Shown here in pieces: positions 18,919 through 36,901 of a DNA stretch of 53,915 bases; the first letter of the stretch is position 1, and each line of letters opens with the position of its first letter. Below the pieces are notes generated by a model, which was not told the origin of the DNA, searched no databases, and worked only from the letters and a program-made list of their open reading frames with translations. Location of the stretch: the IMG/VR virus record IMGVR_UViG_3300035702_000343, positions 1-53,915 of that record. One strand, given 5' to 3'. The DNA comes from a virus. Taxonomy: Duplodnaviria; Caudoviricetes. Both the position numbers and the translations under genes were made by a program.

Positions 18919-19225
18919 TTCTGTATTTTAATAAGTCGTTTTTTAATTTAGGACCGGCTCCTACCTCTGCATCAGAATCACCGGCTTTCATTTTGATCTC
19001 TCTAGGTTTACCGTCAGGTCCTCTAAAGAGTTGCGTGTATATTTTCTCCATGTCTGCCTTAGTCTTTGCTTTTTCCTTTTCTCTTCCTGGGTATTCGAGA
19101 TCCATAAGCTTCTCTACTAAGTTATTATAAGCTTCTACTTTTTCCTGGTTAGTGGTATCTAGGGTAGAAGCTTTTGCTACTATAAACGTTCGGAGCATTT
19201 CTTTTTCTTGCTCCTGTTGCATCAT
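18899..19225 (-). CDS. Tail assembly chaperone, C-terminal (T) portion; probably made as a G-T fusion by -1 frameshift
   Basis: Frame is open upstream to the slippery heptamer at 19312-19318 in the previous gene. Confidence 0.7.
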   Translation of the reverse strand: MMQQEQEKEMLRTFIVAKASTLDTTNQEKVEAYNNLVEKLMDLEYPGREKEKAKTKADMEKIYTQLFRGPDGKPREIKMKAGDSDAEVGAGPKLKNDLLKYRNGRTRS

Positions 19226-19245
19226 CTGTAAAAGTACTCTTTCTC

Positions 19246-19689
19246 TTACTGAGCCTTTTCTTCCGACGTCGATGCCTTTTGCGAGGGCTCGGGCGCGTCG
19301 GCCGGCTCGTCCCCCTTTGAAAAAACATCATCAATATTCTCTACTTCACAGGCTTCTTTAATAGCCTTTTCTAATTTCTGTTGCTCCTTTACTGCCTTGT
19401 CTAGCAGTGCAACACTTTTACCTTGTAAAAAGCCTTCCCATTCATCCCAACTATCGAACTTCTTACCATTCCAATTAATAAGAGTTTTACTTAATAGTGA
19501 GTAGGCATACCTCTGAACGAATTGCCTATCGGTTGCTTTATTTTCTCTGAGTTTTTTTAAATCCCCTTCTAAGTGATACTGTGATGTGTAATCAAGATTC
19601 TTTACTGTTATTTTATATTTACCTAGTTCGAACGTATGTTTGGTTGTATCGCTCTCAAAAAGATCCTCTAAGATTTTTGCTTTATCCAT
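19246..19689 (-). CDS. Tail assembly chaperone (G-like)
   Basis: Small ORF upstream of the tape measure gene carrying a slippery site near its 3' end. Confidence 0.7.
   Translation of the reverse strand: MDKAKILEDLFESDTTKHTFELGKYKITVKNLDYTSQYHLEGDLKKLRENKATDRQFVQRYAYSLLSKTLINWNGKKFDSWDEWEGFLQGKSVALLDKAVKEQQKLEKAIKEACEVENIDDVFSKGDEPADAPEPSQKASTSEEKAQ
19270..19318 (-). other. Programmed -1 frameshift signal A_AAG_GGG plus GC-rich downstream sequence
   Basis: X_XXY_YYZ heptamer in the correct frame; -1 frame is continuous with 18899..19225; unusually GC-rich tract follows. Confidence 0.7.
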
Positions 19690-19821: not shown

Positions 19822-21198
19822 ATGATTAATATAGAGATAAAAAACACAGGAAAAATAAAGGGAATAAAGTCCCTACCAAGAGAGGTGGTAGAGAGTCTCA
19901 GAAATGAATTTACTATCACAAACCCAATGTTCTCAAAGAAAAAGGCATTGGATCTTAGTATATTTGGAACCCCACAATATTTGAATTACTATTCTTCTCC
20001 TGACCGGGACACTTTAGAGGTGCCTGTTGGAGGGGTTTCCAAAGCCATTGAAATTCTTTTAGCTTCTGGTGTGGGGCTTACAAAAGATGATATTATTGAC
20101 AACCGCACCACAGCTTACAATCCAGACTTTTTTGATAATGTTGAATTTCATGCTACTCTAAGAAGTTACCAACAAGACATGGAAGATGCTTGTATGAACA
20201 ATAATTCAGGCGTTATACAAGCAAAAACAGGTTCTGGGAAAACGGTGGTTTTCGTTTCTTACGTTGTAAAAAAGAAGCAAAACACTTTAATTTTAGTTAA
20301 TACAAAAGAGCTAGCTGCACAAACTGTGGAAGCTTTTGTTAAGTTTACTAACCTAGAAGAAGATGATATTGGATTCATAGGTTCTGGCCGGTATGAGCCT
20401 AAACCTATAACTGTTGGAATACTGCAATCTATTGTTCAGTTGAAAGGTAAAGAGCTTTCAGAAGTTCAGCAATACTATGGTCAGCTCATAACTGATGAGA
20501 CGCATATTATTGCCGCGGAGACTTATTATAATGCTGCTGCTCGACTACCATTTAAGCATAAATTTGGATTCAGTGCTACTCCTCAACGAGAGGACGGATT
20601 AACGCAGGTTATATTTTGGGCAACTGGTGATATTATCCATGTTGTTCCTGACAAAGCCCTAAAAGATTATTTAATTAAACCTACTTATAAAAAGATAAGA
20701 ACCAAATATTATTTCCCACTATTTGATACATCGGAATTTCAAGCGATGATAACTGACATTGGAAATAATGGTCCTAGAAATGAACTTATAAAAGATACAT
20801 TTTTAGAAATAGGGGACGACAGGCCTTCTGTATTCCTATGTGACAGGGTTGAACAGGTAGAACTATTACATGAGTTAATACCAAACTCTATTATGCTTAC
20901 CTCGGCCGTAAAAAAGAAGGATAGACCTAAAGCTATGGCCAAGTTAAGAAGCAAAGAAAAACTTCATGTTATTTCTACCTTCGGTTTATTTAGTACCGGG
21001 ATTGATGTCCCCCATTTGGAGGTGTTGTATTTATGCTCACCTAAAAAGTCATTTATAAAATTAAAGCAGGCTGCAGGTCGTTTGATGCGATTGGCAGACG
21101 GGAAGACTGAATCACTTATTGTTGACTTTGTTGATGAGGGGGTTTGGTTATTAGCTAATCAGTGGAAAACCAGACATAAAATTTTAACTAACTTATAA
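19822..21198 (+). CDS. Superfamily 2 DNA helicase (UvsW/ResIII-like)
   Basis: LRSYQ Q-motif, AKTGSGKT Walker A, DETH, SAT, TGIDVP, QAAGRLMR. Confidence 0.9.
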   Translation: MINIEIKNTGKIKGIKSLPREVVESLRNEFTITNPMFSKKKALDLSIFGTPQYLNYYSSPDRDTLEVPVGGVSKAIEILLASGVGLTKDDIIDNRTTAYNPDFFDNVEFHATLRSYQQDMEDACMNNNSGVIQAKTGSGKTVVFVSYVVKKKQNTLILVNTKELAAQTVEAFVKFTNLEEDDIGFIGSGRYEPKPITVGILQSIVQLKGKELSEVQQYYGQLITDETHIIAAETYYNAAARLPFKHKFGFSATPQREDGLTQVIFWATGDIIHVVPDKALKDYLIKPTYKKIRTKYYFPLFDTSEFQAMITDIGNNGPRNELIKDTFLEIGDDRPSVFLCDRVEQVELLHELIPNSIMLTSAVKKKDRPKAMAKLRSKEKLHVISTFGLFSTGIDVPHLEVLYLCSPKKSFIKLKQAAGRLMRLADGKTESLIVDFVDEGVWLLANQWKTRHKILTNL

Positions 21199-21200
21199 TC

Positions 21201-21575
21201 ATGTCAAAATACGACTTTTCGGAAATAGAGCCAGAGAAAAATGACTCAGAGCAAGAAGAAGACCCAAGAACAAATTTTAGAATTACAAAGTCCTGTTCTA
21301 ATTGTAGATACTTTTTTTACACTGGAGTGAAGAGCCGTCGGGGTTATTGTAAATTAACTAATATTAAGCACATGAATATAGGAGCATTCCACAGGACAGA
21401 CACAGACGCTATTGCTGAAGAGCATGGATGGCCTCCCACTCACTGCACAAATTTATGTGACAGACATGAGATAAGAGGACAAAAAAGCTTTGTAAGGTAT
21501 CCCGAAAAACATACAGGTAAGAAATTTAACATAGACGGGAGTTTAAGAGATGATATTATTGATATCGATGATTAG
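21201..21575 (+). CDS. Hypothetical Cys-rich (possible Zn-binding) protein
   Basis: CSNCRY...GYC...CTNLCDRH. Confidence 0.65.
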   Translation: MSKYDFSEIEPEKNDSEQEEDPRTNFRITKSCSNCRYFFYTGVKSRRGYCKLTNIKHMNIGAFHRTDTDAIAEEHGWPPTHCTNLCDRHEIRGQKSFVRYPEKHTGKKFNIDGSLRDDIIDIDD

Positions 21576-21915
21576 CATACTAATCCTCTGGAAAGAGGTT
21601 TTAGAGATAATAGACGAGCATAAAAAGAAATATTCAAAATTACTATCCCAGAAAAAATCTAGTGAGGTTGTTTTAGGCCAAATTTCAGAGCAACTTGCTC
21701 CCTTCCTAAACACCTTCCCAGTTGATGATCCACAGAATCTGGCATTTTTAGGAATGCCTTTAGATTATGTTTACTTTGGTAATGACAAGATAGTTTTTAT
21801 TGAAGTGAAGAGTGGGAAATCAAGACTAAGTACAAAACAAAGAAGATTACGGAATCTTATCCGTGATGGTAAGGTGGAATTTATTATTCACCAAATACCA
21901 AAAAAAGTAAAATAG
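21568..21915 (+). CDS. PD-(D/E)xK endonuclease related to archaeal Holliday junction resolvase (Endonuc_Holl-like); start uncertain
   Basis: GQISEQLAPF...FLGMPLDYVYF...FIEVKSGKSRLSTKQ. Confidence 0.8.
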   Translation: MISILILWKEVLEIIDEHKKKYSKLLSQKKSSEVVLGQISEQLAPFLNTFPVDDPQNLAFLGMPLDYVYFGNDKIVFIEVKSGKSRLSTKQRRLRNLIRDGKVEFIIHQIPKKVK

Positions 21916-21917
21916 GT

Positions 21918-21948
21918 TTTGACCTTAATTAAATTATTACTATCTTTG
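21918..21948 (+). promoter_or_regulatory. Host-type promoter TTTG-N19-TATCTTTG (Bacteroidota -33/-7 consensus)
   Basis: Exact TTTG and TAnnTTTG elements with 19-nt spacer upstream of the exonuclease. Confidence 0.65.
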
Positions 21949-21977
21949 TCTCGTTAATTTTAAACGAGAGAAAAAGA

Positions 21978-22622
21978 ATGAACACACTAACCTTCGATAT
22001 CGAGACAATTCCCACACCAGATGAGGAATTAAGTGATATCCAAAAAGAGGAGATACAAAGGAAAGTAGATACGTATCTCAAAAGAAACCCTTCGGCAGAT
22101 CCAATGGATGCGAAGGGCCTTATAATGGGGACTTCCCCATATTTTGGAAAGATAATTGTTATAGGCGTTCATAAAGTTACGTCACTGACCACAAAGTCCT
22201 TTGCCTTGACCGGTAATGAAAAAGACATTCTTGTTAATTTTTGGAAAGAGGTTGCCGGATTTTCTGGTGTATTTGTTTCCTACAACGGACTGTCTTTTGA
22301 CGTTCCCTTCATAGTAAAAAGAAGTATGAAGTATGGATTGTCGCCCAGTAACAAAAGATTTTTAAAGACATATAGATATAGTCAAGATACACATTTCGAT
22401 GCAAAGGATGTTATCAGTGATTACGATCGATACGCATCGCCAACCCTTCACTTAGCTTGTGATTTATTAGGCATCGACTCTCCAAAAGAGGGCGAGGTCA
22501 AAGCTGATCAAGTGGCTAAGGCATACGAAGAAGGCAAGTTACAACAGATTGCTGATTACTGCGTAAGAGACGTAGAAGCAACCTATAAAGTATACAAAAA
22601 ATTAAAAGGTATTTGGGTATAA
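21978..22622 (+). CDS. DnaQ-like 3'-5' exonuclease (PolB-exonuclease-like)
   Basis: FDIETIP, SYNGLSFDVPF, YCVRDV (ExoI/II/III motifs). Confidence 0.85.
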   Translation: MNTLTFDIETIPTPDEELSDIQKEEIQRKVDTYLKRNPSADPMDAKGLIMGTSPYFGKIIVIGVHKVTSLTTKSFALTGNEKDILVNFWKEVAGFSGVFVSYNGLSFDVPFIVKRSMKYGLSPSNKRFLKTYRYSQDTHFDAKDVISDYDRYASPTLHLACDLLGIDSPKEGEVKADQVAKAYEEGKLQQIADYCVRDVEATYKVYKKLKGIWV

Positions 22623-22630
22623 GAATAATG
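22615..22630 (+). promoter_or_regulatory. GGTATAAGAA motif copy 2 (overlaps exonuclease stop codon)
   Basis: GGGTATAAGAATAATG. Confidence 0.7.
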
Positions 22631-22680
22631 ATCCCGGACACCTTTATTTTAAATTAAGAAACAGAGAGAAAAAATAATTA

Positions 22681-23604
22681 ATGTCACTATTTCAAAAAGC
22701 AGAACCAGAAGCGCCTCGACTAAAAATGTACATCTACGGGGAGACGGGAACAGGTAAGACAGTTACCGCACTGAACTTTCCATCGCCGGCAGTTATTGAT
22801 GCCGAAGATGGTACTTTACATTATGGTAAAGAATTCGACTTTCACAAGATTAGAGCAAATGATCCAGCAGTTATTCACCAAGCTCTTGACGAGCTTTTGC
22901 AAGACCCTGGAGATTTTAAAACTCTAGTCATTGATCCTATGAGTGTTGTTTATGATCAAATCATTCGCATCAAAGAGGATCGTATGAAAGCCAGAACTGG
23001 TAACATGAACTACGAGCTACAGCCTCTTGATTACAAGAGTGTTAAAACAGAAGTAAAAATTCTTATGAATAAACTACTGGCTCTAGACATGAATGTTATC
23101 GTTACAGCCAGAAGTAAACCTCTGTACGCAGAGGGAGAGTTCATGAAGAAAATTGGACAACAGCCTGATGGACACAAAAACATGCCTTACATGTTTGACG
23201 TTGTTCTTGAGCTTTACATCGCAGAAGATGGAGAGACTCGTATGGCCAAGGTAACAAAAGATCGGACCAATACACTTCCTCATGAGTTTATATTTTCTTA
23301 TGACTCATTCGTAGAATACATGGGACTTGATGTCCTTGAACGAGACGCTGATGCAGCTAAACAAAAGGAATCTATTAATACAACCAATAAGCGTACCAAG
23401 CAAATCGAATATAATAACGAGCAGATTTTTACAGCCGGTATAACCGCTGATACTCTGTCAGAGCTTGAAAAGCTATTGGAAGACGTAGACCCTAAACAGT
23501 TAAAAGAGATTTTGATGGAGCAGTTTGAAGTCGATAATCTACTAGATTTGACAAAGAAGAATTCTGAGTCATTTTTAGACGCTGTGAAAAACGAGCTGAC
23601 GTAA
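22681..23604 (+). CDS. AAA_24/Sak4-like ATPase (recombination/annealing protein)
   Basis: IYGETGTGKT Walker A, IDAEDG, TLVIDP, YMFDVV, KDRT; followed by an SSB-like gene. Confidence 0.8.
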   Translation: MSLFQKAEPEAPRLKMYIYGETGTGKTVTALNFPSPAVIDAEDGTLHYGKEFDFHKIRANDPAVIHQALDELLQDPGDFKTLVIDPMSVVYDQIIRIKEDRMKARTGNMNYELQPLDYKSVKTEVKILMNKLLALDMNVIVTARSKPLYAEGEFMKKIGQQPDGHKNMPYMFDVVLELYIAEDGETRMAKVTKDRTNTLPHEFIFSYDSFVEYMGLDVLERDADAAKQKESINTTNKRTKQIEYNNEQIFTAGITADTLSELEKLLEDVDPKQLKEILMEQFEVDNLLDLTKKNSESFLDAVKNELT

Positions 23605-23674
23605 AGCAAGACAACTAGTGACAACCGACAACTGAAAACGTAATTAAAACCATAAAAAACAAATTTACGTTTAG

Positions 23675-24139
23675 ATGAAATTAAACTTTAATAAAGCAAG
23701 AGAGAATTCAGGCGGAGACTTTAGTGTAATACCTGAGAACCGTTATGACCTAGTAATAGATTCAGCAAAATCAACTGAATCCCGGGTTAAGAAAACACCG
23801 ATGTTAGAGCTAAAGATGACCATTTTAGGTCCTAGCTTTGAAAATCGCAAAGTTTGGAAAAGCTTCGCATTAACTCCTCCAGCAATGATTTACCTTATCA
23901 ATTTCTTAAAAGCTTGTGGGCTAGAAGAACTAGCTGAGCGAGATGAGGTTGAGGTTGGAGACATTATCAATGAAGTCCCGGGTAGTAAAGTGGGTGGATT
24001 CATTTCTATCACTACCAACCCGAATTCAGGTAAGGAGCGTAACGAGGTGGAAAACTTCACCGAGTATACAGGTTCCACTGAAGGGGCTGCACCGGCCACT
24101 GCTACTAATACCGGAAAGAAGAAACTATTTAACAACTAA
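23675..24139 (+). CDS. DUF669-like single-stranded DNA-binding protein
   Basis: FSVIPENRYDLVI...MLELKMTILGPSFENRKVW; flexible C-terminal tail; typical partner of Sak4-like ATPases. Confidence 0.7.
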   Translation: MKLNFNKARENSGGDFSVIPENRYDLVIDSAKSTESRVKKTPMLELKMTILGPSFENRKVWKSFALTPPAMIYLINFLKACGLEELAERDEVEVGDIINEVPGSKVGGFISITTNPNSGKERNEVENFTEYTGSTEGAAPATATNTGKKKLFNN

Positions 24140-24145
24140 ACACAC

Positions 24146-24171
24146 GAGGGGCTTCGAGCCCCTCTTTTTTT
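24146..24171 (+). terminator. Intrinsic terminator
   Basis: GAGGGGC-TTCGA-GCCCCTC followed by a T-run. Confidence 0.85.
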
Positions 24172-24175
24172 ATTT

Positions 24176-24682
24176 ATGCCAGGCGGAAGAGAACTAGAAA
24201 AAAGAGCGAATAAGCTCAACTTAAAAAAACGTTTAAATAAAGAGGCCCTTATCTTACAGATACCGGTGCCTATTATTATGACTAAAAACGGGATCGTTCC
24301 TAAACAGTCAACTGTTGACTTCGCCGGCTTAATAAAAGGTGGAAAGTTTATTGCATTCGATGCAAAGGAAACAAAAGTAAAAACTCGATTCGACTTATCT
24401 AATATCCATCAACATCAGTTAGAGTACCTGATGATGGTTAGGGAGCTAGGCGGCTTAGCCTTCTTTTTAATCTGATTTAAATCTCTCTACAACGAGGACG
24501 CATTTATTGTCCCCATTTCTGTTGTAGAACACTTTTGATTCGTAAGCGAAAGGAAATCTATTCCTTTTGAGGATCTTAAGAAGCACTCTAAACTAGTCAA
24601 AGTAGATTCATATTTAGACTTTTTAGACGATGAGAAATTTTTAAAAGACTTATTTAATGAGCAAATTCACGGAAGTACTTAG
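24176..24682 (+). CDS. recU: RecU-family Holliday junction resolvase, 168 aa (TGA=Trp at 24473, 24536)
   Basis: GRELE, STVDFAG, FIAFDAKET, IHQHQLEYL, AFFLI[W]F, RKSIPF; the fold is only complete with read-through. Confidence 0.85.
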
Positions 24683-24974
24683 CAAATTAGAGCCGGGGAC
24701 TATTATATCTATTCGAGTAAAAAAGGGCACAGAGCCTACGAATGGAGAATTTCATAATATATCTCCCGAGGGTGTTGTAGAATTAGGCACCATGGTACTT
24801 GGTACAAAGAAGCAAGTACGACAAACATACGACAGTATATCAGAGATGTTTGGAGGTTATGTTCCTAATAGAACTTATCTCCACGTTGACGATATCAAAA
24901 ATATAACTATATTGGAAAAATATGCCAAGAAAGAAAGTAAAGATAAACGTCAAGAAACTGACGAAGACAGCTGA
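24657..24974 (+). CDS. Hypothetical protein (ends at TGA; would end at TAA 24986 if read through)
   Basis: ORF track; in-operon position. Confidence 0.6.
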   Translation: MSKFTEVLSKLEPGTIISIRVKKGTEPTNGEFHNISPEGVVELGTMVLGTKKQVRQTYDSISEMFGGYVPNRTYLHVDDIKNITILEKYAKKESKDKRQETDEDS

Positions 24975-25368
24975 AATACCGAATAAAGCGAACCCTACCG
25001 ACGCTGCATTTGATATTTATGCTGACCAGTCAGTTAAGATAGCAGGAAGAGGAGGCCGCCTTGCGGTCAGTACTGGTATCGCTCTAGAAATAGAGGATAA
25101 ATATTATGTACAACTAAGAGAAAGAAGTGGGTTCAGTTTAGAATCTGCTGTATTTTTAAAAGGAGGCGTCATTGACTCTGGCTACCGCGGTGAGATAAAA
25201 GTTATCTTGCAGAACAATAGTGAATTCCCGGTTGATATCGAGAAGGGTCAAAAAATTGCCCAGTTCACTATTCACAGAGTTGAGAATGTTGCCTTAAAAG
25301 AAATTGAAGAATTTGAAGACGCTGACACCGATCGTGGTGAAGACGGATTTGGTTCCACGGGGAAATAA
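24922..25368 (+). CDS. dut: Trimeric dUTPase
   Basis: AAFDIYA, RSG, GVIDSGYRGEIKV, KIAQ, RGEDGFGSTG. Confidence 0.95.
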   Translation: MPRKKVKINVKKLTKTAEIPNKANPTDAAFDIYADQSVKIAGRGGRLAVSTGIALEIEDKYYVQLRERSGFSLESAVFLKGGVIDSGYRGEIKVILQNNSEFPVDIEKGQKIAQFTIHRVENVALKEIEEFEDADTDRGEDGFGSTGK

Positions 25369-25442
25369 CTCCGACTACCACTATGAGATACCTTTTGTTC
25401 CGTTGTTATGTGCAGTTTTAAATTGACAACGAAATAAAGAAA

Positions 25443-25817
25443 ATGAGAGAAGACATATTAAATATCGGAGTTAGTAACTCCTCCAAGAGAAAATTAAAGA
25501 TAACTAAAATACACAAGAAGTGGGTCACACTAAAAGGCGGGGAAACTACAGAAAAGATAGTAATGCATGCTGTAGATGCCAGCCAACCTAAACATATTTT
25601 TAAGATTAGCGATTGCTACGTCTTAGATAGAGATGGGGAACCAAAGATTACTGGATTATGGTTTACATTAGTAAACAACGAAATAAGCCAAGAATCTTCT
25701 TTAGCGAAGACACTAAAACGTTATGAGGCGGAAGTACTCGGCGAAATGATAGGGAAGACTGTGGAAGCAGCTCCTGACAAAAAGAACTATTTAGTTATTG
25801 TATCCTGCGATATGTAG
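25443..25817 (+). CDS. Hypothetical protein
   Basis: ORF track; in-operon position. Confidence 0.6.
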   Translation: MREDILNIGVSNSSKRKLKITKIHKKWVTLKGGETTEKIVMHAVDASQPKHIFKISDCYVLDRDGEPKITGLWFTLVNNEISQESSLAKTLKRYEAEVLGEMIGKTVEAAPDKKNYLVIVSCDM

Positions 25818-25822
25818 GGGTT

Positions 25823-25860
25823 GGGGGAGAGCTGATAAAGCTCTCCCCTCCCCTATTTTA
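25823..25860 (+). terminator. Hairpin/putative terminator before the sigma gene
   Basis: GGGGAGAGCT-loop-AGCTCTCCCC stem, imperfect T-tract. Confidence 0.55.
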
Positions 25861-25899
25861 ATTTTCCAATTTACATTAAGATTCACTATATTAAACGTT

Positions 25900-26700
25900 A
25901 TGATTAGCAAATATATTAAAGACATAAAAAAGCATGACCCTATTCCTACTCGAGAAGAAGAAATAGAGTTATTTAAAAAAGCAAGGGCCGGAGAACGATG
26001 AGCCTATGAAAAGTTAATAAATTCAAATCTTAGATTTGTTTTTCAAGTCGCAAAATATTATCAGGGAAAGGGATTACCTCTTGAGGATTTAATTGCGGAG
26101 GGTAATATGGGGTTATTAAAAGCTTACGAGCGTTTTGATCTGGAAGTTGGTGTTAAGTTTATTTCTTACGCCGTATTCTGGATAAAACAGAGTATACTTA
26201 GTGCACTGTATTCACACTCAAACACGATTAGAATACCCCTTAACAAACTTATAAATGTTTCTAAAATAGCAAAAATAAAAAAAGAGTTAGAACAACAACT
26301 ATTACGTGAACCAACTCTATCCGAATTACAAGACTATATAGAAGATCCTTCCCTTAAAGATGATGTTCATCACTTACATACTATAATAAGTTTGGACGTG
26401 CCAAGAACAGAAATGGGTGAAGCGGATCTACATGAAGTTTTAGCCAGGGATGATGAGAACTTAGAGAAAAAACTAGAAGAGTTCAGAGAAGAATTTTTAG
26501 ATGTAATTTCAAATTTCCCAAAAAGGGAGAAAAAAATACTCTGTATGTATTATGGAATAAGATATACCAGAACATATAATCTGCGGGAGATTGGCCTAGA
26601 ACTTGATTTGACAAGAGAGAGAATCAGGCAAATAAAGGACCAGAGTTTAAATAAATTAAGAGAGAAGCCGGAAGGCAAAAAATTGATAGAATACTTATAA
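25900..26700 (+). CDS. RpoD/SigA-like sigma-70 factor, 266 aa (TGA=Trp at 25999)
   Basis: ARAGER[W]AYEKLINSNLRFV, DLIAEGNMGLLKAYERFD, KFISYAVFWIKQSI, LREIG...TRERIRQIK; lacks region 1.1. Confidence 0.9.
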
Positions 26701-28608
26701 ATGGAAAACATTAAATATATTGATGCTCCTAGCAAGGTAGACGATGCTCTTACAGAGCTACATGGATACCCTGAGCTAGGTTTCGATACAGAGACTACAG
26801 GCCTTGATCCCTTAACGGACAAGGTTTTGTTGTTACAGGTAGGTACGCCTACTGTACAGTTTGTGTTTAATGTTCACGAAATTGGACATGAAAACACAAT
26901 GCGGGTATTACACCTACTAAAACAATCAGAAGTAACAAAGGTGGCACATAATGCTAAATTTGATTACACTATGATCAAGAGTAACTACGGTGTAGATTTA
27001 CCAAACATAATTTGTACTATGATTGGATCTATGTTACTTACAAAGGGGATTGTTTCGGCAGACAATAGCTTAGATGGTTGCCTTACTAAATATCTAGGTA
27101 TGAAGATGAATAAGGCCAAACAGAAATCATTCATCGACATGAAGGTTGGAGACTCTTTTACATGGTCCCAAATCCTATATGCTGCCAAAGACGTTGAAAT
27201 GATTATACCTCTGAAAAATAAGATTGTAGATCTTTTAAACGAAAGAGGTATGAAACAATTGTCTGAGCTTGAGTTTGAAACTGTTCGGGTTTGTGGCGAT
27301 ATGCAACTTAACGGGATTTACTTAGACGGTAAAAAGTGGTTAGCATTACTTGATGATGCGAAGGCCATGTCTAAGAAAGCAAAAGCTGAGCTAGATGAAC
27401 ATGTAAAAGATCACGCTCAGTTGGACATCTTTGGGGTTCCTACTGTCAACTATGCTTCACCCCTCCAATTAAAGCCGCTGATCGAAAAGATTACAGGGAA
27501 AGCATTGGAGAGCACTGGAGTAAGAGACTTAGAAAGAATTGATCATCCTATGGTAAAAAGTCTTTTAAATTTTAGAGAGGCTCATAAAAAGGTAACAACT
27601 TACGGTGCCTCATTTCTTCAAAAGCATGTTCATAAAAAGACTAAAAGAGTTCATTCTAACTTTAAGCAGCTAGGAACTGATTCGGGACGTATGTCCTCCT
27701 CAAGCCCTAACATGCAAAATATACCAAGTGCTCAGAAGTATAGAAGCTGTTTCACTAATCAGAAGCCCGGTTATAAAATAATAAGTGCTGATTTTTCAGG
27801 TCAGGAGCTTAGACTGTTAGCACACATTTCTCAAGAACAGGCTTTTATAAAAGCCTTGAACGAGAACAAAGATTTACACTCTTATAGCGCATCATTAATT
27901 TTCGGTGTACCTTACGAGGACTTCTTTTATTATGGTAAGGATGGCATAAGAGAGGCATGTGATGATAACGACAGTTTAGATCCTTTTGAACTATCTTTAG
28001 ATTCGAATCAAAATGATATGGTTGTAGATAATGTAGGTGATCCTCTTATTCGTCCTGAGATGAAGAAAAAGTATAGGACACCTTGTAAGAGTATTACATT
28101 TGGTCTTATCTACGGTATGGGAGCTAGTAAGCTAGCTGATACATTAAAGATAACAATTGCAGAGGCTAAAGAACTTATAGGGAAGTATTTTGATACATTC
28201 CCTACTATTAGGGATCTTTTGGATAGACTAACACAAGAGGCAATGGCTCGTAAGTACGCGTATTCCCCGCTAGACGGACGCCGTCGTATCTTTAGTGGTA
28301 TAGACTGGGACCATGGCGGTAAGGTCGCTCACATGAAAAATATAGCAAAAAATCAACCCTTCCAAGGCGCGGGTGCATCAGTAACCAAGTTAGCGCTTTG
28401 CAGAATGAAACACAGAATAGATTCTACTGGTTGGGATGCTAAGATTATAAATGTAGTACATGATGAGATTCTTATAGAGGTTTTAGAGGAGCAAGCAGAA
28501 GAAGTTGCAAAAGCCCTTGAAGAAATTATGAAAGAATCATTTAATTTTTATGCACCAGACATTCCAATGGTAGCAAAAGCAGAAATAGCAAACGAATGGA
28601 GACACTAA
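26701..28608 (+). CDS. polA: Family A DNA polymerase with 3'-5' exonuclease
   Basis: FDTETTG, HNAKFD, YAAKDV; SGRMSSSSPNMQNIP, ADFSGQELR, RTPCKSITFGLIYG, VHDE. Confidence 0.95.
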   Translation: MENIKYIDAPSKVDDALTELHGYPELGFDTETTGLDPLTDKVLLLQVGTPTVQFVFNVHEIGHENTMRVLHLLKQSEVTKVAHNAKFDYTMIKSNYGVDLPNIICTMIGSMLLTKGIVSADNSLDGCLTKYLGMKMNKAKQKSFIDMKVGDSFTWSQILYAAKDVEMIIPLKNKIVDLLNERGMKQLSELEFETVRVCGDMQLNGIYLDGKKWLALLDDAKAMSKKAKAELDEHVKDHAQLDIFGVPTVNYASPLQLKPLIEKITGKALESTGVRDLERIDHPMVKSLLNFREAHKKVTTYGASFLQKHVHKKTKRVHSNFKQLGTDSGRMSSSSPNMQNIPSAQKYRSCFTNQKPGYKIISADFSGQELRLLAHISQEQAFIKALNENKDLHSYSASLIFGVPYEDFFYYGKDGIREACDDNDSLDPFELSLDSNQNDMVVDNVGDPLIRPEMKKKYRTPCKSITFGLIYGMGASKLADTLKITIAEAKELIGKYFDTFPTIRDLLDRLTQEAMARKYAYSPLDGRRRIFSGIDWDHGGKVAHMKNIAKNQPFQGAGASVTKLALCRMKHRIDSTGWDAKIINVVHDEILIEVLEEQAEEVAKALEEIMKESFNFYAPDIPMVAKAEIANEWRH

Positions 28609-28609
28609 A

Positions 28610-28903
28610 ATGATAAAAAGAGAAGAAGTTTATAAAGCACTAGACAGTGAAAGAGACTACCAAGATGTTCGATGGAAGGAAAATCCCGGGCAACCAGAAA
28701 CAAGGGAATCTTTAGATAGGAGCATAGACGAGTTTTCTACCTATATTATGGCTTACGCACAACAGTTACAAAATGTATGTGCTTCCACAGATGACCCTAC
28801 TGTTAAATTAGACTTTGTTAGAAAAGTTGGTGGGTTATCAGTAGCCTGCATGGAGGCTCATGGAGCCCCTTTAAGAGAAATACCAGAAGGGCTACAAGAA
28901 TAG
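28610..28903 (+). CDS. Hypothetical protein (possibly MazG-like helical fold)
   Basis: SERDYQD..W and RKVGGLSVACME segments. Confidence 0.5.
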   Translation: MIKREEVYKALDSERDYQDVRWKENPGQPETRESLDRSIDEFSTYIMAYAQQLQNVCASTDDPTVKLDFVRKVGGLSVACMEAHGAPLREIPEGLQE

Positions 28904-28907
28904 TACT

Positions 28908-29498
28908 ATGAGAAGATTATCAGAAAAAGTAAAAGATTTTGCAATTAGAAGGCATAATTGGGTTAGACAGGAATACGGAAAAGGTGTTCCATACTCTGTT
29001 CATCTAGAAATGGTTGCAGACTTCGCAGAGAAATTTTCATATGTCCTGTCTGAGGAGGATAGGGATCTTGCAGTCGCCGCAGCCTGGGGACACGACTTAA
29101 TAGAAGATACGAGAGTAACTTATAATGACTTAGGAAAGTTGTTTGGGTGGAAGTTTGCTGAAGTTGTTTTCTGCTGCACAGAGCAGAGAGGACGTAACCG
29201 GGAAGAAAGGCATGGTGAGGCTTACTATGACCTGTTATCTAAGAACTCTATTGGCAAATTTGTGAAGCTGTGCGATATCTGTGCAAATTTCTCTAATTCT
29301 AAAGAGAATAGTAATTCAATGTATAAGAAGTATAAAAAAGAATTTCCTAAGGTAAAGGAAAATTATACAAAGAAGGTGAGTACGAACCTATATGGGACTT
29401 TTTACATTCTCTCTAAAAGCCGGTTTTTCCGGCTTTTTTTGTACCCTATAGTGACAACAAGGCTACTTGACAACAGAAAACAAGACTTATACGGATAA
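28908..29498 (+). CDS. HD-domain (SpoT/Mesh1-like) phosphohydrolase; natural end probably 29416 via a -1 shift
   Basis: RHNWVRQEY..VPYSVHL, AAAWGHDLIEDT, VKLCDICAN; terminator lies inside the track ORF. Confidence 0.8.
   Translation: MRRLSEKVKDFAIRRHNWVRQEYGKGVPYSVHLEMVADFAEKFSYVLSEEDRDLAVAAAWGHDLIEDTRVTYNDLGKLFGWKFAEVVFCCTEQRGRNREERHGEAYYDLLSKNSIGKFVKLCDICANFSNSKENSNSMYKKYKKEFPKVKENYTKKVSTNLYGTFYILSKSRFFRLFLYPIVTTRLLDNRKQDLYG
29416..29440 (+). terminator. Intrinsic terminator
   Basis: AAAGCCGG-loop-CCGGCTTT with T-run. Confidence 0.8.
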
Positions 29499-29593
29499 AT
29501 TACTTAACATTCAACTTGAACACTAAATAGTTTCTGCTTAAGTTTTATCCAAACGCACAAAACAAATTAAAGAGAGAATACTAAAATATAAAT

Positions 29594-32250
29594 ATGAAAT
29601 TAAATAAAGCAAGTAGCATTCTAAGTGACATAACAGTACACATGAAATACGCACGTTACTTAGATGACAAAAACCGGCGAGAGATATGGGATGAGCTCGT
29701 TGACAGAAACGTGGAAATGCACGTTAAAAAATATCCCAAATTAAAAGAAGAAATAAATGATGTTTACGACAGATTTGTAAGAACAAAGGTGGTCCTCCCC
29801 TCGATGAGATCGATGCAGTTTGGTGGAAAGCCTATCGAAATTAGCCCTAATCGGGTTTACAATTGTGCTTATTTGCCTGCGGATCACATAGATTCTTTTG
29901 CAGAAACTATGTTCCTTTTGCTGGGTGGCACAGGAGTTGGGTACTCTGTACAAAAACACCATGTAGAAAAGCTGCCTAAAATTATTCATCCGGATAGTGA
30001 TAGAACCAGGCGATACTTAATTGGTGATTCAATCGAGGGTTGGGCAGATGCAGTTAAGATCCTATTCAAAGCATACACCGGTATAAACCGAAGTAAGCCT
30101 GTATTTGATTACAGTGATATACGTCCTAAAGGGGCTAGACTAGTTACTTCTGGTGGTAAAGCTCCCGGTCCGGCGCCTTTAAGAGAATGTCTGGTTAAGG
30201 TTGAAAATATCCTTTCCAACAAACCTAACCGTAGTAAGCTTCAACCGATTGAGGTACATGATATCATGTGCCATATAGCTGACGCAGTTCTAGCAGGCGG
30301 TATACGAAGAGCTGCTATGATTTCTCTATTCTCTGCGGACGATGACGAGATGTTATCTGCAAAGAGTGGTAGCTGGTGGGAGAATAACCCACAACGTGGT
30401 AGAGCTAATAACTCCGCAGTGTTGATGAGAGACAGACTGACTAAAGATTACTTTATGTCAATCTGGAAACGAGTAGAAGACAGTGGCTCAGGAGAGCCTG
30501 GAATATACCTTTCCAATCATCGTGATTGGGGAACAAATCCGTTGACCTATGCATAATGCGGATTTAAAACCTTCTCTGATCGACTTGGAAGCCGGCAATA
30601 CGGCGACAGGGGGCAAGCAAGGGTCAGAAGATTCTGTGCAGCCTGAGAGACTGAGCGAGAAGGGCGACTACAGTGTTTATTGGATACACACCAATAAACA
30701 CAAGGATATTTATTGTGAAGGTTATGTTGGCATCACTATAGACACAAAGTCTAGAATGAGATCGCATAAAAAGAACAAGAAAAAATCACCAATTGTTGAC
30801 GCTATAAAATCTTATAGTTGGGAAAACCTAGAGATAGAAATTATAGAAGAAGAGTTGACAATGGAGCGGGCTTTAGAGATAGAGGGGAATTACAGGCCTA
30901 GGTTAAATATAGGCTGGAATCTTCAAAAAGGTGGAGAGCTTGGAGTAACGTCTGACTGGTATAATAACCCAGTAAACAAAGAAGCGCACTCTAAGGCTAC
31001 ATCTATTGGAACTAAAGCTGGCATCCAAGAAAAAGATAGTACAGAGGAAAGATCTAAAAGAGCTAAAAACAGTTGGTTAAAGAATGCCGATAGTTATAAA
31101 GGCAGTTGTAGAGGATCTAAAAATGGTAAAGCAAGATTAAATGAAGAACAAGTATTTGAAATTCGTTTTAAGCTTATACCAGAAGGCCTCAGTAATAAAG
31201 AGATAGCAAAAGACTTTAATGTAAAGCCTTACGTTATCCAATTTATTCGTACTGGCAAAACTTGGAAACATGTCGTATGCGACAGTCCAGCGCACAAGTA
31301 GGTATTTTGCTATAACCTTACAGTGTGACGGTTGTGAGATAGGATTAAGGCCCTATCAATTTTGTAATCTTGTTGAGATGAATGCTAACATTCTCGAGAC
31401 GCAAGAAGAATTAGACGAAGCTGCTAAGGCTGGAGCTTTTATAGCTACGCTGCAGGCAGGGTATACAGACTTCCACTATCTACGTGATGTATGGAAGCGA
31501 ACTACCGAGAAAGACGCATTAATTGGAGTATCTATGACAGGTATCGCTAGTGGTAACGTTATGAGTCTTGACATGGCTCAGACAGCTAAAGCTGTTAAAG
31601 CGACCAATGCTGAGATTGCTGAGATTATTGGTATTAAGAAAGCCGCTCGAACTACATGTGTCAAACCTGCTGGAACAACTAGCCTTGTATTAGGAACTAG
31701 TTCTGGTATTCACGCATGGCACAATGATTACTATGTTCGTAGAATGCGTGTTGGTAAGAATGAAGCTATATATACTTACTTAAGTATTAGACATCCGGAA
31801 CTTATTGAAGACGAGCATTTCAGGCCACATGATACTGCTGTGATTTCTGTACCACAGAAAGCACCTGAAGGCGCTATTCTAAGAACTGAGTCCCCATTAG
31901 AAACCTTGGAAAGAGTTAAAAAGGTTAGCCAGAGCTGGATATCTACTGGATACCGAACAGGGCAAAATGGTCATAATGTTTCCTGTACTATTTCACTGAA
32001 AGATGATCAGTGGAGAGACGTAGGTAACTGGATGTGGAAAAATCGGGAGCATTACAATGGAATTGCTGTGCTTCCTTATGATGGTGGTAATTATAAACAG
32101 GCTCCTTTTGAGGACTGTTCTAAAGAAACTTATGAGGCTATGTTAGAGTCCCTTGATAAAGTTGACCTTACACAGGTAATAGAATCCCAAGATGAGACTG
32201 ATCTTAGTGGAGAGATTGCTTGCGGGGGAGGGGCCTGCGAAGTAGTTTAA
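29594..32250 (+). CDS. nrdJ: Class II (B12-dependent) ribonucleotide reductase; exons 29594-30542 and 31331-32250 (622 aa spliced)
   Basis: LPSMRSMQF, YNCAY, GTGVG, GGIRRAA, GEPG; splicing restores WGTNP-C-CEI; FCNL, TCVKPAGTTS, C-terminal CGGGAC. Confidence 0.92.
30543..31330 (+). mobile_element. Group I intron in nrdJ (788 nt)
   Basis: 5' exon ends in U paired with G in P1 (AAATCCGT/GCGGATTT); intron ends in G; P7 GACTG (30649) / CAGTC (31283); removal restores frame and the NPCxE motif. Confidence 0.9.
30549..31301 (+). CDS. Intron-encoded GIY-YIG homing endonuclease with C-terminal HTH
   Basis: VYWI...GYVG, RMRSH, E, GWN motif spacing; GSKNGKARLNEEQV..IR...SNKEIAKDFNV...TWKHV DNA-binding module. 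Confidence 0.8.
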   Translation: MHNADLKPSLIDLEAGNTATGGKQGSEDSVQPERLSEKGDYSVYWIHTNKHKDIYCEGYVGITIDTKSRMRSHKKNKKKSPIVDAIKSYSWENLEIEIIEEELTMERALEIEGNYRPRLNIGWNLQKGGELGVTSDWYNNPVNKEAHSKATSIGTKAGIQEKDSTEERSKRAKNSWLKNADSYKGSCRGSKNGKARLNEEQVFEIRFKLIPEGLSNKEIAKDFNVKPYVIQFIRTGKTWKHVVCDSPAHK

Positions 32251-32253
32251 TTA

Positions 32254-32269
32254 TGGTATAAGAATTATG
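32254..32269 (+). promoter_or_regulatory. GGTATAAGAA motif copy 3
   Basis: TGGTATAAGAATTATG. Confidence 0.7.
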
Positions 32270-32303
32270 CAGGACAAGCTTCCTGTATTTTAATTTAATA
32301 GTA

Positions 32304-32334
32304 AAAAGAGCTACTTTAACGAGTAGCTCTTTTT
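32304..32334 (+). terminator. Intrinsic (possibly bidirectional) terminator
   Basis: AAAAGAGCTACT-loop-AGTAGCTCTTTT. Confidence 0.8.
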
Positions 32335-32358
32335 ATTTATATTCACATTTAAAAAGCA

Positions 32359-32432
32359 CTGTCAAAAAGGCAGTTTATCTGTCAAATAGAGATGACAGGA
32401 TGTCATAAATGCACTTTGGCATTTAGTTTGCA
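32359..32432 (+). promoter_or_regulatory. Sigma-54-type promoter (TTGGCATTTAGTTTGCA) with upstream TGTCA/TGACA repeats
   Basis: GG-N10-GC at 32418-32431; four TGTCA/TGACA half-sites at 32360-32405; upstream of hsp20. Confidence 0.65.
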
Positions 32433-32474
32433 AGACAAAAAGAAAACTGAAAACTCAAACTAAAACTAAAAAAT

Positions 32475-32834
32475 ATGTATTTTATGAAAATTGGAACCCA
32501 CGACAAAAGTATAAGTGATCTTTTTAGACTCGGAATAGATTTGATGAATGAGCCAATATTTTCGTCTTTCGTAGATGAGAAAATATCAGTTAACTCGGAG
32601 GATGAGTCGGCTACTATATCTTTAGCAGTTCCCGGGTATGACAAAAAAGATTTGAAACTAACTATTCAAAAAAATAAGCTTTTTATCTATCTAAAAAGCG
32701 AGTTGTTTAAAACCTACTTTCTTACAAAGTCTGTTGATAAGGAAAGCATTGATGCCACCCTAAAGAACGGTTTATTAAAAATTACATTTGATAGACAAGA
32801 AGCACCTGATGAAGAAGAAATAAATATTAACTAA
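32475..32834 (+). CDS. Small heat-shock protein (Hsp20/alpha-crystallin)
   Basis: LAVPGYDKKDLKLTI...VDKESIDATLKNGLLKITF. Confidence 0.85.
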   Translation: MYFMKIGTHDKSISDLFRLGIDLMNEPIFSSFVDEKISVNSEDESATISLAVPGYDKKDLKLTIQKNKLFIYLKSELFKTYFLTKSVDKESIDATLKNGLLKITFDRQEAPDEEEININ

Positions 32835-32837
32835 ACC

Positions 32838-32858
32838 AAAGGCCTTCGGGCCTTTTTT
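32838..32858 (+). terminator. Intrinsic terminator
   Basis: AAAGGCC-TTCG-GGCCTTT plus T-run. Confidence 0.85.
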
Positions 32859-32861
32859 ATT

Positions 32862-33170
32862 ATGTTTGAAACTGTATTAGACCCTGATAAAGTCCCTAAA
32901 TGGTTCATCGATTTTTTCATCGACTTGAACGTTAAGGTAGACTTAGAAAAATTACAAGAGTTCAATGTTGCTTATGCCACGGAAAAAATAAACGAGGTTG
33001 AAAGACAGGCTACTTGTATATTAAACCCGAGTACCGAGGTCATCTATATAATCGCAAAGCAAACGACTTATGAAGACCCGATTACTCCTGAAATAGAAAC
33101 TTTTTTATTCGAAACAAATTTAAATAAGCTACATGGCAAAATCAGAAAAAACGGAAAGAAAACAAGTTAA
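32862..33170 (+). CDS. Hypothetical protein
   Basis: ORF track. Confidence 0.55.
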   Translation: MFETVLDPDKVPKWFIDFFIDLNVKVDLEKLQEFNVAYATEKINEVERQATCILNPSTEVIYIIAKQTTYEDPITPEIETFLFETNLNKLHGKIRKNGKKTS

Positions 33171-33432
33171 AGAAAGTGGTATTTTCTATGAAGCTTGGAC
33201 AAAAAAAGAATTGGAACAAAACCCTATAACAGAAAAACATGTCGGAGCCCCTATTAGCGTAGCGAGTGATCCCAGGAAAAGAAAATACATCTTAGAGAAA
33301 ATCCATAAACCTGGAGAAAAGATGTATCCTGATGGGGGGTATGAAATTGATCACCCAGATTTTGTCTTTAGTCAAAGCCTCTTCTTAGAGGAAGCAAAGT
33401 CTTTTAAACCTAAGAAAAAGAAGAAAAAATAA
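33133..33432 (+). CDS. Hypothetical protein with poly-Lys C-terminus
   Basis: ORF track. Confidence 0.6.
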   Translation: MAKSEKTERKQVKESGIFYEAWTKKELEQNPITEKHVGAPISVASDPRKRKYILEKIHKPGEKMYPDGGYEIDHPDFVFSQSLFLEEAKSFKPKKKKKK

Positions 33433-33440
33433 ACTATATC

Positions 33441-33456
33441 TGGTATAAGAATTATG
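33441..33456 (+). promoter_or_regulatory. GGTATAAGAA motif copy 4
   Basis: TGGTATAAGAATTATG followed by hairpin AAGAAGC/GCTTCTT. Confidence 0.7.
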
Positions 33457-33507
33457 AAGAAGCACAAAGCTTCTTAATTTTTTAACTTAAACTTAATCTA
33501 CAACATT

Positions 33508-33876
33508 ATGTTTACACTTATTTCATACTCCGACGCCGGTTATTCTTTGATCCACCAATCAGGAGATTTCCAGGAACTAGAGAACATTCAACAAGATCCT
33601 AGTATCTTAAATTTGGATGGTCTTTTATTGAACGATAACCTTCTTTCTTTAGGTGGCATTTGTGGATCCCTATCAATGGGAGACGGGGATGACTTTGAAG
33701 ATGTTACAGGGTTCGAGGAAAACTCTCATCTTTTTATTTTAGATCAGGAATTTATTGAGTATCTAAAATCTTGCGAAGAGGACTCTGAGGATCTAGAGCT
33801 TTGTGAGATGTTAATGACTCAGTATCCTGACCCTCATATGTTGAAAGATACGCTCCACTGTAATATAGCTGCATGA
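33508..33876 (+). CDS. Very acidic hypothetical protein, ends at TGA overlapping the next ATG (ATGA)
   Basis: ORF track; high Asp/Glu content and almost no basic residues. Confidence 0.6.
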   Translation: MFTLISYSDAGYSLIHQSGDFQELENIQQDPSILNLDGLLLNDNLLSLGGICGSLSMGDGDDFEDVTGFEENSHLFILDQEFIEYLKSCEEDSEDLELCEMLMTQYPDPHMLKDTLHCNIAA

Positions 33877-34727
33877 CAGCATGTATTATCTTTAACCCTG
33901 ACTCAGATGAGTCAAGGTTGCACAGGATAGAAACCGTACTAAGTCTTTTATATTTCAGGGTTGATGCTATTGCATTGGCCCCGGAGTATAAAATTAGAGA
34001 AGACTTTTTAGGTGGTAAAGCTTTTATTGCAAAAGACGAACAACACGCATTAGTGAATTCTGATGTGGTTATTTGCTTAGGAGGTGATGGCACAGTTATC
34101 TATACTGTCCATATGTTAGCAAAATATGATTTGCTGAATAAACCGGTTATATCAATAAATTTGGGTAACGTTGGTTTTATATGTCCATTTTCTTACGAGG
34201 ATGTTCTTAAAGGACTTGATATGGACATGGATATACAAGAGCGTAGCCTTCTTGAATTAAAGACAGGGGCAGCTAGACAACCAACCGCTTTAAATGAAAT
34301 CTATATAGGGAAACCTGATATAGAAACAACTGTTCTGACTTTTAAAATATCTTTTAATGACCAAGTAGCTACATTTAGAGGAGATGGTGTAATACTAGCC
34401 ACATCTACAGGGTCTACTGCATACAATTTTTCTATGGGAGGTCCTATAATTTCCCCAGAAAGAGGAGCTAATCTCGTGTGCATAACTCCTACTGGTTGTA
34501 TAGATGCTAGTGTTAAGCCTATAGTCATGAAATTAGACCCACTGAATTCTTTGACTATAGAAACCTCAGAAGAATCTTGTGTCCAATGTGACTCAAGAAC
34601 TATAGGATATTCAAAAAACCACGAGGTGGAAGCCTCACTTGAGAGTCTCTTTCTTAAAACTCCTAAGAGTTTTAATTATTTTGACCTGCTTGAAAAAAAG
34701 TTAGGTTGGGGTAGGCTTTCTAAGTAA
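33873..34727 (+). CDS. nadK: NAD(+) kinase
   Basis: LGGDGT, INLGNVGF, ALNE, GDGVILATSTGSTAYNFSMGGPII, KKLGW. Confidence 0.92.
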   Translation: MTACIIFNPDSDESRLHRIETVLSLLYFRVDAIALAPEYKIREDFLGGKAFIAKDEQHALVNSDVVICLGGDGTVIYTVHMLAKYDLLNKPVISINLGNVGFICPFSYEDVLKGLDMDMDIQERSLLELKTGAARQPTALNEIYIGKPDIETTVLTFKISFNDQVATFRGDGVILATSTGSTAYNFSMGGPIISPERGANLVCITPTGCIDASVKPIVMKLDPLNSLTIETSEESCVQCDSRTIGYSKNHEVEASLESLFLKTPKSFNYFDLLEKKLGWGRLSK

Positions 34728-34798: not shown

Positions 34799-34871
34799 GG
34801 GCCTATAACTCAGATGGCAGAGTACCAGCCTTTTAAGTTGGGAGTCGCAGGTTCGATCCCTGCTGGGCCCA
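34799..34871 (+). tRNA. tRNA-Lys(UUU), CCA not encoded
   Basis: Acceptor GGGCCTA/TGGGCCC, D arm ACTC/GAGT, anticodon stem CCAGC/GTTGG with loop CTTTTAA, T arm GCAGG-TTCGATC-CCTGC; TTGCAT-N17-TAACTT promoter upstream. Confidence 0.92.
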
Positions 34872-34962
34872 CACCCGTTAGGGGTTATGTCTTCTGCCGT
34901 GGCACTTAATGAGCGTTACGACGTCATTAACTTGCCAAGCTTATAAAAATTTTATACCTTAT

Positions 34963-34978: not shown

Positions 34979-35398
34979 CTGAGGAACACATACAGCATTT
35001 TTAATCAAGCAAATGATAGAAAACAGTGTTCCGATGACGCAACTTGGGGGTGTTCTGGATTCGACTGCTCACAAAAAGTTAAAACTACAATCTGGCTCGT
35101 AGACTACTACCAAACAGTTAAATTGAACTGACAAAAATCAATCACCTAAAATAGCTGGCTTTATTGGCTCAGCTAAGACTCAACCAGCAATAGCTGCGTA
35201 AAGTTCGTTCTACCTGATGATAATAGGGATAGTAAACTTAGGTTTACAGAGCGTCATAATTATCAGAACAGGTGTGGTGACCTTAAACACTCTCAGATAG
35301 TATAGCTTACCGACTGCCACTGAGTAAACAAAAGGCTAAAATAGCAAAATGATTGTACAATAGTTTTAATGGATGTGCTGTAGGACCGGAGTTCGACT

Positions 35399-36135: not shown

Positions 36136-36189
36136 CTCCGCACCTCCACCACACGGTTAAGTGTAACCCAAGTTGTAGATTGCATGTTT

Positions 36190-36223
36190 AAAGGGAGCCT
36201 CTTTATTGAGGTTCCCTTTTTTT
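36190..36223 (+). terminator. Intrinsic terminator after tmRNA
   Basis: AAAGGGAGCCTC-loop-GAGGTTCCCTTT plus T-run. Confidence 0.85.
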
Positions 36224-36244
36224 ATTTAACTTTAATTTTATCCC

Positions 36245-36517: not shown

Positions 36518-36536
36518 CCCTTAATAAAATAATACT

Positions 36537-36882: not shown

Positions 36883-36901
36883 ATGTAAGTATTTGGGAGT
36901 A

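Follow-up and report, generated by a model that had tools for sequence, protein, structure and literature searches.

Partial reassignment of a stop codon in phages has been described by Borges et al. (10.1101/2021.08.26.457843), who report recoding of 26–71% of genes in phages of standard-code hosts and of about 90% in phages of hosts using code 25; recoding was enriched in structural and lysis genes, a code-change module was placed upstream of the lysis cassette, and suppressor tRNAs were detected in only 35% of the code-4 genomes. A 2026 survey of jumbo phages (PMC13037316) assigns alternative codes mostly to gut phages, with 0–0.65% of jumbo phages affected elsewhere, and PMC10879173 concerns theta ribozymes beside suppressor tRNAs. 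We examined the use of TGA in IMG/VR virus record IMGVR_UViG_3300035702_000343 (Duplodnaviria; Caudoviricetes), classed as linear and analysed over its complete 53,915 bp (hereafter the window). TGA is decoded as tryptophan (Trp) in this phage and is distributed unevenly, being frequent in baseplate, fibre, terminase and other head genes and scarce in the genes for replication and nucleotide metabolism; the same split is found in two near-complete relatives, both of which encode a tRNA with anticodon UCA, tRNA(UCA), resembling their own tRNA-Trp.

TGA specifies Trp in the window. The gene models used were 58 longest open reading frame (ORF) calls, whose start codons are uncertain, and they form a minus-strand block (2–19689), a plus-strand block (19822–34727) and a second minus-strand block (35578–53868). 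Under translation table 11 the minus-strand genes fragment; when TGA is read through, long ORFs are obtained, all ending at TAA or TAG, and the fraction covered by ORFs of 100 aa or more increases from 0.81 to 0.90. The 58 models contain 43 in-frame TGA codons, 36 of them covered by a tblastn alignment with some relative; for 26 of the 36, one or more relatives have TGG or TGA at the same place (loci not dereplicated), and the remainder lie mostly opposite F, L, I, Y or H. Glycine, the residue specified by TGA in code 25, stood opposite a window TGA in none of the tblastn alignments. Seven TGA codons lie outside any alignment, three in the fibre gene, two as the plus-strand C-terminal candidates considered below, and two near 5′ ends; at codon 13 of 12018–13142 and codon 46 of 39243–40013 (both minus strand) the TGA may precede the true start. 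The gene for the terminase large subunit (49040–50602, minus strand, assigned by Pfam) has TGA at 50027–50029, 49787–49789 and 49436–49438, and all three map to alignment columns in which Trp is conserved in at least 90% of 39 sequences, namely the window and 38 of 120 listed matches (264 were found). The interval 45704–47533 (minus strand) is one gene, which encodes 609 aa and contains two TGA codons; its reading under table 11 as three TGA-terminated genes was rejected, since one alignment to relative G001 runs unbroken over residues 1–608. According to the first-pass annotation, TGA is not required as a stop by any minus-strand gene, and the data are consistent with this: every minus-strand ORF called with code 4 ends at TAA or TAG, and homologs bridge the fused ORFs. 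For annotation the consequence is that without TGA as Trp about a quarter to a third of the window genes come out split or truncated.

The skew in TGA use is significant, beyond chance. TGA/TGG counts are 5/41 in the plus block, 21/23 in the left minus block and 17/37 in the right minus block; the plus-strand ratio differs from that of the minus strand (38/60) with a Fisher P=7.5e-4, or P=4.9e-5 if the two C-terminal candidates are taken as stops and the plus block is counted as 3/41. A per-gene TGA:TGG test of the kind proposed in the first-pass annotation, run on the window, gave a permutation P=1e-4 for heterogeneity among genes (144 Trp codons shuffled among 48 Trp-containing genes), and heterogeneity was seen inside the minus strand alone (29 genes, P=0.024). 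The TGA-richest part of the window is the run of tail-fibre and baseplate genes at 2–13142 (minus strand), with 20/14 in 2–11293 and 1/2 in 11297–13142; the four genes adjoining the divergent region (13142–19689, minus strand), among them those of an 879-aa and a 1042-aa protein, have 0/7, so that 11297–19689 stands at 1/9 compared with the 20/14 of 2–11293 (P=0.010). In the tube, sheath, head and packaging genes of 36902–53868 (minus strand; 17/37 with the HNH gene included), TGA-free and TGA-bearing genes are mixed. Altogether 18 of 58 genes (31%) bear TGA (14 of 58 when four doubtful cases are set aside), and TGA makes up 43 of the 144 Trp codons of the window (30%), short of full adaptation to a code-4 host. 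General codon bias is not the cause of the skew, because the A-ending share of four A/G codon pairs (AAA/AAG, GAA/GAG, CAA/CAG and TTA/TTG) is 0.63–0.70 in every block and is alike in TGA-bearing and TGG-only genes (0.683 vs 0.667, P=0.34; on the minus strand only, 0.684 vs 0.692, P=0.95).

The plus block (19822–34727) comprises 22 genes of replication and nucleotide metabolism, assigned by Pfam as helicase, Holliday-junction endonuclease-like, exonuclease, AAA_24, DUF669, RecU, dUTPase, sigma-70-type factor, PolA, HD, split NrdJ with GIY-YIG, HSP20 and NadK. The first-pass annotation had listed nrdJ, polA, the helicase, the exonuclease and both intron nucleases as users of TGG only, and codon counts agree, with no TGA in any of them (TGG: nrdJ pieces 6 and 6, polA 5, helicase 3, exonuclease 2, GIY-YIG nuclease 6, HNH nuclease 2). 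The same had been claimed for the major capsid protein (MCP), sheath and tube; the counts in the window are indeed 0 TGA, with 1, 3 and 2 TGG for MCP, sheath and putative tube, but 0/6 is not distinguishable from 38/54 (P=0.08), and sheath and tube homologs of some relatives have TGA (TGA/TGG for sheath and tube 3/4 and 2/0 in L127; tube 1/1 in L130; sheath 1/3 in L123 and 1/6 in G003). MCP had no TGA in the window or in any relative examined, though its Trp codons are few. The concentration of TGA in assembly genes was borne out, TGA being frequent in baseplate, fibre, terminase and other head-module genes. Enrichment in structural genes and depletion in replication genes were both found in the window and in the near-complete relatives G003 and G004, apart from RecU and the sigma factor; these two put TGA into the plus block, and the pattern is less clean than had been proposed. 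The window yielded no identifiable lysis gene.

Relatives, of which IMG/VR holds many, were recruited by terminase and PolA alignments. The closest terminases (68% identity) are on two records of about 69 kb, G001 and G002 (35–38% complete), and near-complete relatives at about 50% identity are G003 (205,518 bp, 97% complete) and G004 (210,208 bp, 100%). Each of the latter has 37 genes homologous to those of the window, in the same order, and because of this collinearity with relatives of 205–210 kb the window, with a CheckV completeness of 27%, most likely represents about one quarter of the genome of a jumbo myophage, some 200 kb in size. The phage GenBank collection contained no close relatives of the window proteins; the 1042-aa protein had no match there, and the best identity for PolA was 28%. 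Scans of viral and genome contigs with single proteins returned no relatives, whereas the alignment-based scans of viral contigs did find them. Homologs gave no link to a host, the organism names attached to them being scattered across metagenome-assembled genomes.

The split in TGA use is conserved among these relatives. Homologs of the plus-strand genes have 0 TGA and 30 TGG in G003 vs 51/58 for homologs of the minus-strand genes (P=1.7e-7), and in G004 the respective counts are 0/36 vs 25/46 (P=6.8e-6). PolA and NrdJ had no TGA in the aligned parts of 12 of 12 dereplicated relatives. In virion genes TGA and TGG interchange freely, as in the terminase gene, with 3/4 in the window vs 0/8 in G001. 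Replication homologs that are TGA-free at about 50% identity, alongside virion genes that swap TGA and TGG, argue for selection against TGA in one class of genes, and the conserved TGA-free replication module is indirect evidence of selection excluding TGA from that class. Across four relatives TGA occurs in 30–39% of ORFs of at least 80 aa. Judged by ORF coverage, the terminase clade contains recoded and apparently standard-code members together; at 17 loci judged to be standard-code, TGA ends 56 of 348 ORFs (16%).

A tRNA(UCA) was present in both near-complete relatives (2/2) and in neither of the partial ones (0/2). The two loci, G003:70650–70746 (L150) and G004:65786–65883 (L139), were found by ARAGORN, which labelled them 'SeC'. 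At 97–98 nt, they include a long extra arm, have G73 as discriminator and encode the CCA end, and the one in G004 has an A1–U72 pair; Rfam tRNA scores were 34.1 and 24.2 bits, the second being below the 29-bit cut-off. Both resemble the tRNA-Trp(CCA) of the same genome, and in G003 the anticodon arm is identical to that of its own tRNA-Trp(CCA) except at position 34, with similar acceptor and T arms. In overall form they look like a tRNA-Trp to which a long extra arm of some 20 nt has been added and whose D arm is enlarged, and TGA stands at Trp positions. The tRNA(UCA) gene borders TGA-rich fibre genes (15/6 and 32/18 TGA/TGG) on one side and a TGA-free run of genes on the other; it lies directly upstream of an Amidase_2 gene (putative lysin), itself TGA-free, and 1.4–6 kb beyond the homolog of the fibre gene that is cut off by the window's left end. 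Comparison of the G003 and G004 suppressor regions with the window gave only chance matches of 11–15 nt. The TGA-free block that follows tRNA(UCA) and the amidase gene in G003 also holds a Volactin-type actin-like gene (Pfam E=3e-70; G003:72744–73724, L150:12744–13724). Relative G003 carries an additional tRNA with anticodon CUA, an amber reader (G003:105393–105469); reading TAG as sense raised ORF coverage of its locus L026 from 0.68 to 0.72, which is little gain.

The leftmost gene of the window, which is tail-fibre-like, continues past the left end, and its product contains a repeated segment of about 50 residues; within the gene is a direct repeat with a period of 720 nt, the stretch from base 1 to about base 100 reappearing at 721 (window 1–820). 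The assembly probably ends at this edge because of the repeat. A circular genome was considered, as the two terminal ORFs would fuse in frame, and was dropped since the left end lies in a repeat and the record is linear and 27% complete. DNA beyond the left end, where the relatives have tRNA(UCA), was sought in metagenomes with the fibre protein and an exact 44-nt stretch, without a match.

Two genes of the plus block require TGA to be decoded. The gene for the Holliday-junction resolvase RecU (24176–24682, plus strand, 168 aa) has a Pfam RecU match (E=2e-29) over residues 4–150 that requires read-through of TGA at 24473–24475 and at 24536–24538. The second of these aligns with W in PDB 1y1o and 2fco and, among 9 dereplicated relatives, is opposite TGG in 8; the first is opposite TGA in L117 and TGG in L130, the closest two relatives in which this block is present. 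The RecU family is typical of Firmicutes and Mollicutes. The sigma-70-type factor (25900–26700, plus strand, 266 aa) has one TGA, at 25999–26001 (codon 34). Pfam matches to regions 2, 3 and 4 were obtained on a shorter form starting at 26107; since that form misses the first 31 model positions of region 2, the long form is the real gene, and the ATG at 25900 is the start, relatives aligning over residues 1–266 (67.7% identity for L117). The sigma homologs of L117 and L130 have TGA at codons other than the window's 34, opposite residue 93 in both and in L130 also opposite residue 12. The split in TGA use therefore does not follow strand. A further sigma-like gene at 11297–12016 (minus strand), devoid of Trp codons, was matched only by region 3 of sigma-70; one TGA is present in its G003 homolog.

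Terminator-like hairpins are enriched in the window (37 vs 11.5 +/- 3.7), and strong ones stand directly 5′ of RecU (24146–24164) and of the sigma gene (25823–25849). Their position hints at several transcription units in the plus block, not one early operon. Sigma-70 promoters were considered as an indicator of early genes and dropped, their scan being at chance level.

The first-pass annotation had also proposed that two plus-strand genes stop at TGA, and here the two candidates fared differently. One is a small gene at 33508–33930 whose product is 122 or 140 aa long, according to whether the TGA at 33874–33876, which overlaps the start of nadK as ATGA, is read as a stop. Its positional ortholog in L117, of weak similarity (z=4.4 vs shuffles), ends at a TAA 8 nt into nadK, an overlap comparable to the ATGA of the window, which gives modest support to the TGA at 33876 as a real stop. 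The other candidate is a small gene at 24657–24986, of 105 or 109 aa, with TGA at 24972–24974, four codons ahead of a TAA; this TGA sits in a variable acidic tail, where stop or Trp would matter little for the protein, and the data speak neither for nor against a stop. A TGA close to a C-terminus is not by itself a stop, because in the minus-strand gene 50818–51648, with a TGA seven codons from its end, the alignment to G001 continues past the TGA. The latter gene, in the head and packaging block, is nucleotidyltransferase-like by weak Pfam matches below the cut-off, and four of its eight Trp codons are TGA.

The explanation we regard as probable, with room left for doubt, is that the window derives from a jumbo myophage (about 200 kb) in which TGA is read as Trp by means of a phage-borne tRNA(UCA) derived from tRNA-Trp, and in which TGA is kept out of the genes that unaltered host machinery must translate. 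The suppressor gene would probably lie just past the left end of the window, and the host would read TGA as stop, by the standard code. Genes that need the unaltered machinery, most of those for replication and nucleotide metabolism, would then be kept TGA-free and would be the early ones, and genes translated once the suppressor is present (baseplate, fibre, terminase, other head genes, RecU and sigma) would have accumulated TGA at Trp sites, so that their output would depend on the suppressor. The notion of a suppressor-driven switch is not new, being the published model of Borges et al. (10.1101/2021.08.26.457843). The first-pass annotation had proposed a dual code acting as a temporal switch between early and assembly genes; the uneven and partial recoding and the tRNA(UCA) genes of two collinear relatives favour it, and the split does not follow strand, given RecU and sigma.

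Several observations count against this explanation. No tRNA(UCA) was found in the window, itself 27% complete, by ARAGORN with intron search and lowered thresholds or by Rfam at E<=1, and the nearest relatives, G001 and G002 (35–38% complete), yielded no tRNA of any kind. Neither a release factor (PF03462) nor a class-Ib synthetase (PF00579) was matched in the window or in G001–G004. In the relatives, tRNA(UCA) is downstream of late fibre genes on the same strand, which is no pointer to early expression. A scan for sigma-70 promoters gave 52 sites vs 50 +/- 7.5 in shuffles, and the label 'early' for the TGA-free genes would be one assigned solely from what the genes encode. Two members of the replication block, RecU and sigma, require TGA decoding. 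The positions of TGA vary among relatives, which looks like drift rather than gene-specific tuning. Dependence on the suppressor may represent an evolved timing gate, or it may represent a passive constraint, with TGA tolerated only in genes whose translation follows the appearance of the suppressor; the data fit both.

If the host itself read TGA as Trp (code 4) there would be no switch, TGA would be decoded at every stage of infection, and the uneven ratio would reflect history or selection on individual genes. The lack of a suppressor in the window and the TGA codons of RecU and sigma would follow readily, as would the scarcity of TGA stops, at most 2 of 22 plus-strand genes ending in TGA vs the 16% of ORFs in the standard-code relatives. 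The association of the RecU family with Firmicutes and Mollicutes would fit as well. We consider this unlikely, because a phage of such a host would hardly confine TGA to 31% of its genes and 30% of its Trp codons when other A/G pairs are 63–70% A-ending, and because the wholly TGA-free replication homologs of two relatives, set against virion genes that swap codons, indicate selection on one class. Both relatives, moreover, carry tRNA(UCA) alongside tRNA-Trp(CCA), and close members of the clade are apparently standard-code. A further possibility is that TGA is always decoded but is a poorer codon than TGG, so that genes translated efficiently or accurately avoid it and timing plays no role. 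The MCP genes fit this, with 0 TGA everywhere examined (though with few Trp codons), and so does the under-use of TGA everywhere relative to other A-ending codons; yet the A-ending share does not separate TGA-bearing from TGG-only genes, the 0/6 of MCP, sheath and tube is not significant, sheath or tube homologs with TGA occur in L127, L130, L123 and G003, and the TGA-free class is made up of replication enzymes rather than of the most abundant proteins. We give it, too, only a small chance of being correct. It is very improbable that the in-frame TGAs are true stops and the genes broken, split or expressed by programmed read-through, with no recoding: table 11 does yield many adjacent ORFs on the minus strand, but homologs cross the TGAs with Trp there, the Pfam RecU match spans both of its TGAs, and ORF coverage improves when TGA is sense.

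An extension of the suppressor explanation, which we hold as tentative and on balance doubtful, is that sigma and RecU, both carrying TGA, might be completed only once the phage tRNA(UCA) is active, which would put the code switch upstream of the transcription switch. If true, late transcription and the resolution of branches before packaging would be licensed by translation and not by a promoter cascade alone. The recoded sigma and RecU genes would be a concrete, testable link of decoding to the late programme.

The remaining features of the window are as follows. The left minus block (2–19689) contains the fibre and baseplate genes, one sigma-like gene and two large proteins without a family, these being the 879-aa and 1042-aa proteins (13142–18918, minus strand), which had no Pfam or PHROG match; they adjoin the divergent region, are conserved in G003, G004 and L117, and have no TGA in the window. 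In the plus block, PolA (26701–28608) has 5 TGG and 0 TGA by codon counts, in accord with its relatives, and a PolA identical to it is present on a contig of 62,041 bp. NrdJ (29594–32250, plus strand; region total 18 TGG, 0 TGA) is in two pieces, 29594–30556 and 31270–32250, separated by about 714 nt that contain the GIY-YIG gene (30549–31301); the halves in L117 are only about 30 nt apart. Rfam detected no group I intron at this split, so an intron or a split gene are both possible. Between the plus block and the right minus block stand tRNA-Lys(UUU) (34799–34872, plus strand), which is the sole tRNA of the window by tRNA search, and a tmRNA region. The tmRNA gene (35046–36151, plus strand) is split in its T-loop: its 5′ part (from about 35046 to 35391) scored 36 bits by Rfam, below the 47-bit cut-off, and is followed by a group I intron core (35383–35622, 88.4 bits), an HNH endonuclease ORF on the strand opposite to the tmRNA (35578–36084, 0 TGA/2 TGG), the matching 3′ end with T-stem, acceptor strand and CCA (36136–36151) and a terminator-like hairpin (36190–36219). 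The tmRNA genes of G003 and G004 are uninterrupted.

Among described systems, the phages of code-25 hosts (Absconditabacteria and Gracilibacteria; 10.1101/2021.08.26.457843) have in common with the window TGA as a sense codon; TGA here is opposite Trp and never Gly, and it is used in 31% of genes vs their approximately 90%. The crAss-like phages with block-wise codes (Mgcod, 10.1101/2022.06.29.495998) resemble the window in combining standard-code stretches with stretches in which a stop is reassigned. The window departs from them in that TGA = Trp in a contractile-tail myophage, and in that its blocks are leaky, RecU and sigma with TGA lying in the standard-looking block. From the Agate, Jade and Sapphire code-4 clades of Borges et al. 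(10.1101/2021.08.26.457843), it differs in that neither RF1 nor TrpRS was matched in the window or in the records of four relatives and no suppressor was found in the window, in that the amidase gene adjoining the relatives' tRNA(UCA) is TGA-free, and in the recoding of RecU and sigma within the replication block. The samples surveyed by Borges et al. were from gut, and some homologs of the window genes are labelled as from ocean surveys, a label that belongs to the homologs and not to this record. With the same clades it shares TGA at Trp sites in only part of its genes, enrichment of TGA in structural genes and its depletion in replication genes, close standard-code relatives, and complete relatives with a phage tRNA(UCA); 18 of 58 genes in the window and 30–39% of ORFs in the relatives fall within the 26–71% range given in the same source. 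The present analysis provides a further well-documented instance of partial TGA-to-Trp recoding, from a lineage of jumbo phages that has both recoded and standard-code members.

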